A DNA stretch of 64,000 nt from Candidatus Uhrbacteria bacterium (GCA_016844925.1 JAERTI010000043.1:197110-261109), one strand, 5' to 3'; shown: positions 48,947 to 53,680, counted from the stretch's first letter. Notes: a model not told the origin generated them from the sequence alone. A program made the numbers and translations.

Positions 48947-50386
48947 ATGAGTGATATCGATCTGACGCGAGTGGAGGAGGCGCTCAAGCGCACACGTGAA
49001 GGAGAGCTCCTTCGTCTGGCTGCACGCAACCCCATGAGCATTCCGTTGTTTGTGGATGCGGCGGTGAAGGCCGAAAGAGTGAAGGGTGTTGAAAAGGCGG
49101 TGAAGCGTGCGCTTTGCCGGCAGCTCAAGGCTCGGAGGCCGGGCAAGGGGTATGACGTCGTGCTCATGGAGATCCTGAGGGAGTACAAGGGCGCAAGTCA
49201 CGAATCGTTGGATTCGTTGGTTGCACTGGGCATGCTCGAGCGGCATGGCTTTTGCTACGACGATCATCGCGACAGTCTGGCTTGCGTTGAGGCTCTGGTG
49301 AGCTTTAGCACGGAAACGATGGAGATGGTCAGGGACTACGGACAAGAAGCAATTTCCTTGACCGCTAAGGCTCTTGCTCAGATGGGGATGCGGATTAGCC
49401 CTGGTGGCTTGGAGGGGCGCATTACGCAGGCGGCAGACGGGTTGGTTCACCACATGGCGATGGGGCTTGGGTGGAATTGCAGGAAGAAGAATTCTCTTGC
49501 TACGCCGATTACCACACCGGCCGTTTTGCGTGCAACGCTGCACATTCTGCAGAATCAAGAGATCGTGGTGCTTTCGGCAAGTGCCTCTGGGCAGGCACGA
49601 ATTTTGGTGGAGGCCACTCAAATGGTTCATGCCGTTTCCCAGCGCGGGATGACGGATGAACAGATCCATGCGCTGGTGGAAGACAAAAATCCAAATGTGC
49701 TTGGTCGCGCTTGCGCTCTTATAACCGACGGTGTTGTCACGATCGATCAGCTTCCCGTGGTCATGGCGACGGGGCTTCTTGGGCGAGGTCGACAAGTTGT
49801 CATGCGTGTCCTTGGTGACTGGAATGACCTTGGGCAATCTTGTTCATTGCAGCAGTTCATCGATCTTGGTGGCAACCGCGAGTCGTGGGAGCAGTACGAA
49901 CAAGCGCAACTTCAGCGAGAGCGGGAGCGAGATCGACTTCGGGCTGAAGAGAGGGAGCGAGCAGACGCCAACGCTCCCAAGCATCGCAAGCGTGGACAGG
50001 CGAATTGTCAGGAGAGTGAGACGGTGAACGTCGATTTCGGGGCTCTGTGTTCCGAGGTCAACGTCCATGTGAGTTTTGCTGATCTTGATCAAGACCTGAC
50101 GCGCGTGATCCTGGTGCACGGTCTTCTGCGCGAAGGAGACAGGCTCGTCTCCATGGCGAGGCTTCCTGCGCGTAAGGAGTCTAAGCTCTGGAGTCAGTGC
50201 CGCCCGCACCTGGGAGAAAACCCTTCCCGTAAGGCCTTCAAGCGCGGGTTGCAGGTTCTGATCTCGCGGCGCCTGGTGGCGATTTCGGGAGGGAAGCATT
50301 CGCTCGCTTCGCCCAGCGCTCGCTACCCGGAAGCTCAGCAGCTTCTCAAGCAGCTGCGTGGCTTGGTCGTCAAGTACGCCAGCTAG
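48947..50386 (+). CDS. Array paralogue 4
   Basis: GFCYDD, GLGWNC, VLGDWNDLGQSCSLQQFIDLGGNRESW, QRERERDRLRAEERER, NAPKHRKRGQA, LVHGLLREGDRL...; start set at the MSDIDL ATG behind a GAGAAAGGA SD. Confidence 0.55.
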   Translation: MSDIDLTRVEEALKRTREGELLRLAARNPMSIPLFVDAAVKAERVKGVEKAVKRALCRQLKARRPGKGYDVVLMEILREYKGASHESLDSLVALGMLERHGFCYDDHRDSLACVEALVSFSTETMEMVRDYGQEAISLTAKALAQMGMRISPGGLEGRITQAADGLVHHMAMGLGWNCRKKNSLATPITTPAVLRATLHILQNQEIVVLSASASGQARILVEATQMVHAVSQRGMTDEQIHALVEDKNPNVLGRACALITDGVVTIDQLPVVMATGLLGRGRQVVMRVLGDWNDLGQSCSLQQFIDLGGNRESWEQYEQAQLQRERERDRLRAEERERADANAPKHRKRGQANCQESETVNVDFGALCSEVNVHVSFADLDQDLTRVILVHGLLREGDRLVSMARLPARKESKLWSQCRPHLGENPSRKAFKRGLQVLISRRLVAISGGKHSLASPSARYPEAQQLLKQLRGLVVKYAS

Positions 50387-50415
50387 AAACGAACGGATCC
50401 ACACGGGGTCCTGTG

Positions 50416-50471
50416 CCTCGACTTCACGTCGAGGCTTTTTTATTGACAGAGATCTTTGAAAGGCATAGGTT
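50416..50471 (+). promoter_or_regulatory. Cassette junction: terminator plus a TTGACA-N17-TAGGTT promoter
   Basis: cctcgac-ttcac-gtcgagg-cttttttt, then attgaca ... taggtt. Confidence 0.5.
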
Positions 50472-50511
50472 CTCTATCTGGCTCAAAGAATGGGTCAGCA
50501 AGGAGAGAGCC

Positions 50512-52090: not shown

Positions 52091-53560
52091 ATGACGCATC
52101 CAAATGAATTGGATGAGATCAAGAAGGGCTTCGAGGGCCCAGGAAGAGAGAAGATTTTGCTGAAAGCAAGGTCTCATCAGCTGGGTCTGGGGATCTACAT
52201 CGGGGAGATGCTTTCTCGAACAAGGGTTTCAGTTGCTTACAAACCGTTTGCGGCAGCAGCTCTGAGGCGGCAGTCTCTAGCGACACCAGCTGGAAAGCAG
52301 GGATACGATGAGAGGCTCCTGCAAATTCTGAAGGTCTATCAAGAGACGTTCGGCACCACGGTTACGTCGACACTCTGGCACGTGGCCGTGCTTGAGGAGT
52401 TGGGGTTCAGCTACGACGACCCTCGTCAGACAGCCGTGTGCTTGATGGCATTGAAGGAGCACCATCGTTTGATTCAGGAATTAGGTTTCCTTTTCAGACC
52501 TGGTGACAAGAACCAACAGCGAGGACGCGTTACGGTTTACGATTATTCGGGCTGCGACGTGACACGACCGGAAACATCGGTTAAGTACGCAAAGGGTTTT
52601 CTTTCGATGCTCAGGCGCGCGCTCCGTGACGACAAACGTTCGCATGAGGATACGATTCCAACAACCTCTCCGGAGGTACTGTGTTCAGTGGTGGATCTCG
52701 CTTTTCTGGAGAAGGAGAACTCTCCAGCAGATGCAAGAAAGGAATTCGAGGCGGGGCTGCTCAATCGCGCGCCAGTTGTGGTCGTTAAACATAATCCGTT
52801 CAGGCTTCTGCATTTCCTCCACTTGGCTGGAATGAAAGACGCAGAAATGAGAAAGATTCGTGAGGCGCATAACGTCAATGTCCTGGTTGAGTTCGCCAGG
52901 CATGTTAGAGGAGGGTGGGCTGACATTGGTCAGTTCGATGAGCTGATCGCTGTTGGTGCGAGGTCAATGAGTCACGAACAGCTTAAGTACCTGCTCCAGC
53001 ACTGGAGCGCTGCGGGCAAACCTGGGACACTGCAGGCGTTCAAGGATGCAGGAGGTTCACAGGAGGACTGGGATCGTAAGGTTGAGGAGGATGAGGTCCA
53101 GCGCAAGCGGGCTCTAGAGGAAAGTCTTGCTTCACAAGAAGAACAGCTGCGCGCCCAGCGTGGGTCAGGAAAGAAACGTAAGCACACCACTTATGTGCCG
53201 CCTACTCGCAAAGATATAGACTTCGACGGTCTCGAAAGTCAGCTGGAGATCCATCCGCTGTTTTTCAAGTTTGACGAGGCCTGTGTCAGGGCTGTGATTG
53301 TGAGAGGTTTCCTCAAGCACGGAGACCGGCTCCCAAAGAGTCTTCATGAGGCAGAGCAGCGAGACGCCAAGAAGCTGTGGAAAGCTACTCGGACTGTGTT
53401 CGGGAGCCGCCGAGAGTTCAACGCACTCATGAAAGCCATGGAGCAGCAGCACGTCGTCCTTCGCAAGGGGGGTAAGTACCAGCTGCACTGGCCGGGAGCA
53501 CGCTTCCCGGAGGCACGCGCGCAGGTGCTGGAGATCAAGAAGCTCCTGGCTCGCGCATAG
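52091..53560 (+). CDS. Array paralogue 6
   Basis: GFSYDD, LLQHWSAAGKPGTLQAFKDAGGSQEDW, GSGKKRKHT; the C-terminal ~30 codons are nucleotide-identical to paralogue 5. Confidence 0.55.
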   Translation: MTHPNELDEIKKGFEGPGREKILLKARSHQLGLGIYIGEMLSRTRVSVAYKPFAAAALRRQSLATPAGKQGYDERLLQILKVYQETFGTTVTSTLWHVAVLEELGFSYDDPRQTAVCLMALKEHHRLIQELGFLFRPGDKNQQRGRVTVYDYSGCDVTRPETSVKYAKGFLSMLRRALRDDKRSHEDTIPTTSPEVLCSVVDLAFLEKENSPADARKEFEAGLLNRAPVVVVKHNPFRLLHFLHLAGMKDAEMRKIREAHNVNVLVEFARHVRGGWADIGQFDELIAVGARSMSHEQLKYLLQHWSAAGKPGTLQAFKDAGGSQEDWDRKVEEDEVQRKRALEESLASQEEQLRAQRGSGKKRKHTTYVPPTRKDIDFDGLESQLEIHPLFFKFDEACVRAVIVRGFLKHGDRLPKSLHEAEQRDAKKLWKATRTVFGSRREFNALMKAMEQQHVVLRKGGKYQLHWPGARFPEARAQVLEIKKLLARA

Positions 53561-53571
53561 GAGGTTTATCT

Positions 53572-53596
53572 GAGGTCCATACGGGACCTCTTTTTT
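53572..53596 (+). terminator. Intrinsic terminator closing the array
   Basis: gaggtcc-atacg-ggacctc-tttttt. Confidence 0.6.
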
Positions 53597-53680
53597 GTTG
53601 CCTGGATCACTTGACGAACGGCGTTATATTTAGTAGTTTAAAAATCCGTGTGCTCAAAATGGGGCACGGAAGGAGGGTTC

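Follow-up and report, generated by a model that had tools for sequence, protein, structure and literature searches.

Recombination at conserved ends as the probable force remodelling a tandem array of orphan genes in Candidatus Uhrbacteria

A stretch of 64,000 nucleotides (nt) from Candidatus Uhrbacteria bacterium (GCA_016844925.1, JAERTI010000043.1:197110-261109), hereafter the window, carries six same-strand paralogous genes, P1-P6, which lie in tandem at 44087-53560 and encode proteins of 479-525 amino acids (aa). Pairwise aa identity within the array is 21-33%, with the exception of P5 and P6 (55%), and some of the genes share identical or nearly identical tracts at their ends. The locus therefore raises the question of whether such a mosaic reflects uneven conservation or recombination among the paralogues. 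Our reading, to which we would give a probability of about 0.8, is that this Patescibacteria chromosome carries modular cassettes of a lineage-restricted orphan family, which are remodelled by recombination at their conserved ends. A preliminary description of the DNA had overlooked a seventh member, P0. The members are as follows.

37543-39210, plus strand: P0, seventh member, outlying (4.9 kb upstream of P1) and of a distinct subtype
44087-45664, plus strand: P1, 525 aa, first in the array, with two N-terminal hydrophobic segments; Q1 of the relative described below is 91% identical
45775-47274, plus strand: P2, 499 aa, TTG start codon, C-terminal type A; Q2 is 93% identical
47357-48841, plus strand: P3, 494 aa, C-terminal type A; no copy in the syntenic relative
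48947-50386, plus strand: P4, 479 aa, C-terminal type B; positional orthologue Q3
50512-51963, plus strand: P5, 483 aa, C-terminal type C; orthologue Q4 (82% aa identity)
52091-53560, plus strand: P6, 489 aa, C-terminal type C; not represented in the relative

P5 and P6 form a mosaic. The strings quoted for this pair in the preliminary description were found where it had placed them (a 78-nt 3' string at 51886 and 53483, and a 42-nt string of the untranslated region (UTR) at 50462 and 52041), and the 3' identity of about 100 nt that it had reported is an exact run of 102 nt (51868-51969 = 53465-53566). The second-longest exact run covers 47 nt (50457-50503 = 52036-52082). A repeat finder returned a 3' repeat of 300 nt with 89-90% identity (51623-51922 and 53220-53519) and a 5' block of 125 nt (50416-50540 and 51995-52119). 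The claimed sharing of terminator, promoter and 5' UTR is thus real as a block, but at 91% identity it falls short of the near-identity that had been attributed to it. The divergence of the N-terminal coding regions was confirmed, the core being about 50% identical with saturated synonymous sites. Divergence is not uniform along the cassette: sliding identity between P5 and P6 stays at 30-68% in the core but rises to 82-100% in the final ~340 nt, while the proportion of differing synonymous sites (pS) is 0.6-0.9 (saturated) in the core and 0.04-0.47 over the last ~110 codons. Identity within the 3' tract is itself graded, from 82-95% over ~200 nt to 100% over the last 102 nt, which suggests more than one event, of different age. 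The 34 mismatches in the tract are ordinary, mostly third-position transitions of all types. The shared segments are the following.

51671-51969, plus strand: conversion tract in P5, comprising the 3' coding end (winged-helix-like C-domain), the stop codon and 6 nt beyond
53268-53566, plus strand: partner tract in P6, of which 53465-53566 is identical to P5
50416-50540, plus strand: 5' block before P5, comprising terminator hairpin 2, TTGACA-N17-TAGGTT, the 5' UTR with a small hairpin and the first ~10 codons
51995-52119, plus strand: 5' block before P6, partner of 50416-50540

The history of these segments was examined against a relative with its own array, Q1-Q4. This relative is represented by syntenic metagenome contigs (L001-L006) from several samples and assemblers, whose flanks are ~88-93% identical to the window; they were recovered by exact-protein look-up of P0003, the only non-self homologue. 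The P5, P6 and Q4 cassettes were aligned three ways and subjected to a maximum chi-squared breakpoint test with 2000 permutations. P5 grouped with Q4 from the spacer to ~51650-51670, and from there to the stop codon it grouped with P6. The breakpoint fell at 51670-51675 (maximum chi-squared 129), a value reached by none of the 2000 permutations (p<=0.0005), and the informative sites uniting P5 with P6, P5 with Q4 and P6 with Q4 numbered 73:374:76 to its left and 50:10:9 to its right. Where P5 and P6 are 90-100% identical, Q4 differs from both by 20-30%. The identity of P5 to Q4 is 70-80% in the tract versus 87-95% just upstream, and this drop suggests that P5 was the recipient. The phylogenetic incongruence bears out the recombination between cassettes that had been proposed for this array: in its 3' tract, P5 is closer to its paralogue than to its own orthologue. 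Judged from these alignments, the P5/P6 3' tract is the product of gene conversion between paralogues, not of conservation alone. For the direction, from P6 to P5, and for the recombination machinery, we infer rather than observe.

The array also differs in copy number between the two lineages. The relative carries four cassettes versus six in the window, with the correspondences (aa identity) Q1=P1 91%, Q2=P2 93%, Q3~P4 53% and Q4=P5 82%, and P3 and P6 are without counterpart. One of the joints lies within a second shared tract, that of P2 and P3. The near-identity reported for the 3' ends of this pair holds for the last 39 nt (38 of 39 positions), and not for the rest of the 3' domain, which is 71% identical with saturated pS. 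The string ATCAAGACGCTGATCA occurs at both 47236 and 48803, and the terminal run of 16 identical synonymous codons was unlikely under permutation (p=0.006).

47236-47274, plus strand: P2 3' tract of 39 nt, holding the left arm of a terminator palindrome and the stop codon
48803-48841, plus strand: P3 3' tract of 39 nt, inside which the Q2-Q3 junction of the relative switches

Along the Q2-Q3 junction, the sequence resembles P2 as far as ...GATCAC, then passes through the shared CAGCGCACACGCGAGGTCCT and becomes a spacer of the P3-P4 type. Because the switch falls inside CAGCGCACACGCGAGGTCCT, the joint of the presence or absence of P3 lies within the 39-nt P2/P3 tract. Cassette gain or loss among related strains, which the preliminary description had put forward for comparison, is thus seen at this locus; as to loss versus gain of P3 and P6, we again only infer.

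A third kind of change was found at P4. The 5' leader and first ~35 codons of P4 and Q3 are 87-98% identical and the last ~300 nt are 95-98% identical, while the core between them is 32-63% identical with saturated pS. Such alike ends around a divergent core indicate that the core was replaced between strains. Exchange of smaller patches was seen in P1 and P2, where strains swap segments of 0.3-1 kb: over stretches in which L001 has 84-93% identity to the window, L002 and L003 have 97-99%. As a separate observation, the 5' part of Q1 in L002 (1-1131) is replaced, relative to L001, by unrelated sequence with an FdtA-like gene, leaving a remnant of 226 aa; either the rearrangement is genuine or the contig is chimeric.

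The following scheme would account for these changes. On this account, the region covers the distal portion of the array P1-P6, P0 being an outlier, and each cassette is autonomous. Each open reading frame (ORF) consists of modules, an old and deeply diverged all-alpha N-terminal core set between a conserved 5' leader with the first codons and a conserved 3' winged-helix-like segment with its terminator, and the conserved ends would serve as homology arms for RecA-type homologous recombination, both non-allelic and between strains. First, once the sister lineage had branched off, gene conversion has probably replaced ~300 nt of the P5 3' end with sequence of the P6 type, or else the P6 end with that of P5, and a more recent event covers the last 102 nt. 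Second, unequal crossing-over or deletion at the same ends may add or remove whole cassettes, such as P3 and P6. Third, whole cores may be replaced between strains, as in P4 versus Q3.

Several points weigh against this scheme. The phylogenetic test leans on one sister lineage, which is known from metagenome contigs alone, and if the 3' end of Q4 had been the one replaced, the direction and timing of the event would alter, although a recombination event would still be required. Across P5, P6 and Q4 the 5' block is alike to the same degree, so that conversion and strong conservation are inseparable there. The P2/P3 tract is identical in Q2 too and therefore undatable; it also shares positions with a terminator stem that does not vary between genera, to which selection at the nucleotide level may contribute. 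Adjacent genes of the same type in a more distant array (L087) are without a drop in pS, indicating that conversion is not universal in the family, and patchy identity extends into the flanking housekeeping genes, indicating that recombination between strains is not specific to the array. Finally, as to function, the structural matches to winged-helix proteins have E values of 0.1-0.9, and there is no match in Pfam, NCBIfam, PADLOC, PHROGs or PDB.

Part of the same evidence might be read differently, with P6 as a divergent allele of the P5 slot that came from another strain by transformation and was placed in tandem by unequal recombination at the conserved ends; the shared ends would then mark the crossovers of one event and not ongoing concerted evolution. 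In favour of this, P4 and Q3 show that a slot can hold divergent cores between conserved ends in different strains, strains do exchange patches of 0.3-1 kb, ComEC is encoded in the window, and P6, like P3, is missing from the relative. However, the graded identity of the tract is more easily explained by two or more events of differing age than by a single one, and the P5 3' end is unusually far from Q4, which implies overwriting that an adjacent insertion would not need. We consider this acquisition unlikely, though it is the explanation that competes best with conversion between the resident paralogues.

Selection without any conversion has still less to recommend it. Under this hypothesis, strong purifying selection on the C-domain and on regulatory DNA would keep the ends identical while the N-domains drift freely, and in every genome the C-domain is indeed better conserved than the rest of the family proteins (45-65% aa identity within types across genera, versus 20-30% for the N-terminal parts), the terminator stem is invariant across genera, and the 5' block is equally conserved in Q4. 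Selection on the protein leaves synonymous differences, yet pS falls from 0.6-0.9 to 0.04-0.47 in the P5/P6 tract; Q4 is 20-30% different from both genes there, so the nucleotides are not constrained; and the switch of site patterns was significant (p<=0.0005). The hypothesis is thus largely refuted for the P5/P6 3' tract, and as a general account we regard it as very improbable.

An assembly artefact, in which P5 and P6 would be alleles from two strains that occur together and were wrongly placed in tandem or joined across repeats, must also be weighed, since the window is a metagenome-assembled contig, the complete P5 and P6 proteins are recorded in the NCBI assembly only (an exact-protein look-up of P6 returned no record) and strain mixtures are present in the samples. 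Run SRR13374099 also contains L093, the four-gene array of another organism. A Logan contig from this run, SRR13374099_2259 (L094), has 100% identity to window 37357-50486 and breaks off precisely 30 nt inside the 47-nt exact repeat; a stop at k-1 = 30 nt is the branch point of a k=31 de Bruijn graph, as would be seen if two different left contexts preceded the repeat in the reads. Exact repeats in the array reach at most 102 nt, and P5 and P6 are joined by a linker that shares no 21-mer with the rest of the window, so it was not built from other copies.

51970-52035, plus strand: unique linker of 66 nt, from the P5 3' end to the P6 promoter, with no 21-mer elsewhere in the window

The preliminary description had named assembly collapse as a possible source of the identical tracts; the independent contig and the unique linker argue against it, and we find an artefact scarcely credible. 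The idea that the P5-P6 spacer is a special duplication junction was rejected, as its two-hairpin layout is also that of the P3-P4 and P4-P5 spacers.

Least credible of all is a recent duplication of a whole cassette followed by hypermutation of, or strong diversifying selection on, the core, as in diversity-generating retroelements (DGRs) or antigenic variation: conserved flanks around a variable centre resemble such systems, but synonymous sites in the core are saturated, the core of P6 stands equally far from those of P5 and Q4 (45-47% aa identity), so that the split predates the divergence of the lineages, the mismatches are not adenine-specific, no pair of template and variable repeats (TR/VR) was found, simple sequence repeats (SSRs) and invertible repeats are lacking, all cassettes are complete genes with promoters, and orthologous pairs are under purifying selection (ratio of nonsynonymous to synonymous differences, pN/pS, ~0.15-0.3).

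The resemblance to antigenic, phase-variable and effector repertoires that had been suggested for the array does not hold up: there are no silent copies and no export signal, the repeats expected of phase variation are missing, and selection is purifying. The "diversified N-terminal cores" of that suggestion reflect ancient divergence instead, as deep subfamilies recur in other genera, and from the sequences compared here the cores are better read as exchanged as whole modules than as actively diversified in place. No layout of expression site and silent copies was found, all six cassettes being complete units. Phase variation was rejected as a candidate, as Tandem Repeats Finder (TRF) gave only trivial two-copy repeats, inverted repeats were short and chance-like, and no recombinase was present among the syntenic neighbours. 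A DGR was rejected on the mismatch spectrum and the lack of a TR/VR pair, and no reverse transcriptase was found among the neighbouring genes listed with Pfam hits. An integron was also rejected: there was no attC or intI, the cassettes are paralogous with their own promoters, the 3' palindromes are terminators of 19-20 nt followed by T-runs, and the neighbours encode GNAT, M20 and a small membrane protein.

Three known systems invite comparison. Concerted evolution by RecA-dependent gene conversion and unequal crossing-over is known from tufA/tufB and from Helicobacter outer membrane protein paralogues of the babA/babB type. The array shares with these sharp tracts, paralogues closer to each other than to orthologues, homogenisation at synonymous sites and copy-number change at repeats. 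It differs in that only the cassette ends are homogenised, the cores being ancient separate lineages, in that its family is an uncharacterised orphan specific to the candidate phyla radiation (CPR), and in that the ends also appear to mediate whole-core replacement between strains. Antigenic variation cassettes, such as Neisseria pilE/pilS, Borrelia vlsE and Anaplasma msp2, likewise have a variable centre and conserved flanks that guide segmental recombination among tandem copies; in contrast, the array is without a single expression site or promoterless silent copies, its products are without signal peptides, and it is the conserved end that is converted, not the variable part. In type I restriction-modification (RM) systems, the target-recognition domains of hsdS are exchanged at conserved repeats, and here too the genes are modular, often clustered paralogues, with variable domains swapped at conserved flanks. 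Unlike hsdS, the array encodes proteins without similarity to HsdS or RM components, its copies are direct rather than inverted, no site-specific recombinase is nearby, and the variable unit is an all-alpha domain of ~350 aa.

The process itself is textbook, and what is new is its action on an uncharacterised CPR-specific family. A tiny streamlined CPR/Patescibacteria genome spends ~11 kb on seven copies of an orphan family and appears to keep remodelling them. The locus shows non-allelic conversion, cassette gain and loss and inter-strain domain replacement all at work in uncultivated organisms. With two to six copies at one syntenic site across relatives and joints mapped to the nucleotide, the array offers a tractable model. 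If the proteins were regulators or specificity factors, it would be a rare adaptive gene-family expansion in an episymbiont lineage.

What the proteins might do was approached through their relatives and their predicted fold. A search of 1.84 billion cluster representatives with a hidden Markov model (HMM) of the six paralogues returned only 43 proteins, almost all of them of 460-530 aa, and the family was found in Patescibacteria (Uhrbacteria-like). A family HMM identified P0 (E 4e-92), which BLASTP ties to L093_a and other members; Pfam gave no match on P0. Its subtype is nearest L093_a/P0038, GNAT and M20 peptidase genes lie between P0 and P1, and P0 is followed by a terminator of the CCGAC..GTCGG type (39222-39242 region). 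Scans of the six proteins against Pfam, NCBIfam, PADLOC and PHROGs gave no significant family, and a PDB sequence search with the family profile gave no match. Scans of genome and metagenome contigs with family alignments or P1 found no relatives, which were supplied by exact-protein look-ups, and a word-index search with a 37-sequence profile returned nothing further. Searches of the literature turned up nothing relevant.

Distant metagenome-assembled genomes hold the family at the same site, with ComEC-NDK-GNAT on one side and a small membrane protein and a TrpR-like gene on the other; two members are present in L090, and two intact and one broken in L088. The broken member (L088, 8399-9904) is split into ORFs of 112 and 280 aa and is apparently a pseudogene, showing that such arrays decay too. 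At least four members are found in L093, in a different genomic context, and at least four in L087 (5.5 kb), a contig that holds family genes only. The C-terminal 115 aa fall into four deep types, namely D (P1), A (P2 and P3), B (P4) and C (P5 and P6).

An AlphaFold model built on a 37-sequence alignment (predicted local distance difference test, pLDDT, 86) divided the protein into an all-alpha N-domain of ~350 aa and a C-domain of predicted winged-helix topology, between which lie a long charged helix and then a disordered basic linker that carries a conserved PxGxKR motif. Modelled alone, the C-domain reached pLDDT 90.6 with the order helix-strand-helix-helix-strand-strand (helices 26-38, 56-63 and 70-82, the first strand between the first two helices, and strands 86-89 and 92-95). 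Its top Foldseek matches were all winged-helix proteins (MarR family, NadR, SarZ, PrfA, SelB and TubR) but weak, with E values of 0.1-0.9 and TM-scores of 0.4-0.47. The full-length model gave nothing below E 0.03 against PDB and BFVD, where the matches were generic and helical. Pfam on 37 family members likewise gave only scattered sub-threshold winged-helix families, with GntR (PF00392) scoring 12.9 bits against a cut-off of 27 and further weak hints of Cdc6_C and CvfB_WH. The family resembles winged-helix regulators of the MarR/GntR kind in this predicted arrangement of its C-terminal ~90 residues and in its basic proteins; it differs in that the domain is C-terminal, after a charged helix and the PxGxKR linker, and in that the N-domain is without known relatives. 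P2-P6 are net basic and have hydrophilic N-termini, without a signal peptide or transmembrane segment; none of their segments reaches 1.6 in Kyte-Doolittle hydropathy over 19 residues (KD19). P1 has two transmembrane-like segments, at the N terminus only. The proteins are probably cytoplasmic, and their properties faintly suggest that they bind nucleic acid, P1 probably being membrane-tethered, and that the N-domains have diverged for different partners or ligands; the family proteins are probably not surface antigens.

A further hint comes from the terminators. The palindrome GAGGTCC-N5-6-GGACCTC occurs in the window at array cassette ends only, in three exact copies and two with one mismatch versus none expected, and 7-20 nt separate it from the next -35 box downstream.

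45682-45700, plus strand: terminator after P1, GAGGTCC-N5-GGACCTC followed by a T-run
47265-47284, plus strand: terminator after P2, the same palindrome, overlapping the P2 stop codon
48832-48872, plus strand: after P3, palindrome with one mismatch (48832-48851), second hairpin CCCCGAC..GTCGGGG (48854-48872) and T-run
51975-52014, plus strand: after P5, palindrome with one mismatch (51975-51993), second hairpin (51994-52014) and T-run
53572-53590, plus strand: terminator after P6, palindrome at the end of the array

The stem is invariant directly after family genes in L001, L087, L088 and L090, next to proteins that are 25-60% identical, while loops and flanks vary and no covariation was seen. 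This hints at sequence-specific recognition, because the stem of an ordinary terminator should diverge over time through compensatory changes. The palindrome may thus be a protein-binding site besides a terminator, for which a dimeric winged-helix protein would be an obvious candidate. One could go further and imagine that the array encodes modular DNA-binding proteins peculiar to a CPR clade, as a self-referential repertoire diversified by recombination, in which the winged helix reads the palindrome, the cassettes cross-regulate one another, and the ~350-aa N-domains are swappable specificity or sensor modules, exchanged between strains via the conserved ends as hsdS domains or immune-receptor repertoires are; we offer this as speculation and think it unlikely to be correct. 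A second terminator family, C(C/T)CCGAC-N5-GTCGG(G/A)G with a T-run, corresponds to hairpin 2 of the two-hairpin spacers; its sites are the 39222-39242 region, 48854-48872, 50415-50435 and 51994-52014, as well as those after gene c in L087 and gene a in L093.

Every cassette consists of a promoter-like box, a ribosome-binding site (RBS), an intact full-length ORF and a terminator. The spacers follow one order everywhere: a terminator at or overlapping the stop codon, a few bases, TTGACx-N17-TA(G/A)nTT, a leader of ~40 nt with a small hairpin, and the RBS. A strict sigma-70 consensus scan did not call the spacer boxes promoters, because TAGGTT fits TATAAT at just 3 of 6 positions; their recurrent position and conservation nevertheless suggest that they act as such. 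Small hairpins lie in the 5' UTRs 10-15 nt upstream of the RBS (47325-47340, 48914-48929, 50479-50499 and 52058-52078), with the sequence CCGG-N8-CCGG before P3 and P4 and CTGGCTC-N7-GGGTCAG before P5 and P6; Rfam gave no match on the array, these hairpins included. The leader TAATCTCCCTTCTTCGCC is conserved ahead of type-B genes in three other genera (L087, L088 and L090 spacers). It is missing upstream of P4 in the window, where the leader resembles that of P3 (78% over 59 nt).

Some observations concern the surroundings of the array. The leucyl-tRNA synthetase encoded in the window has its best matches in Patescibacteria / Candidatus Uhrbacteria (61-64%), and the genome is therefore that of a CPR bacterium without a close GTDB representative. 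A small protein with two transmembrane segments and an acidic tail (85-113 aa) is always encoded 3' of the array (window 53648-53989, plus strand; L001, L088 and L090). It is followed directly by a TrpR/YerC-like gene in L088, L090 and some L001-type contigs, and an ORF of the FMN_red type stands between the two in the window (54632-54925) and in L004 and L006. Farther along, the NAD synthetase gene differs between the lineages, with no nucleotide match across the segment (window 56863-58854 versus L001 14779-15748). The window has an ORF of 682 aa (56905-58953, minus strand), whose counterpart at the same position in L090 is a CN_hydrolase + NAD_synthase protein of 676 aa; L001 instead has an NAD_synthase of 272 aa and a NUDIX gene.

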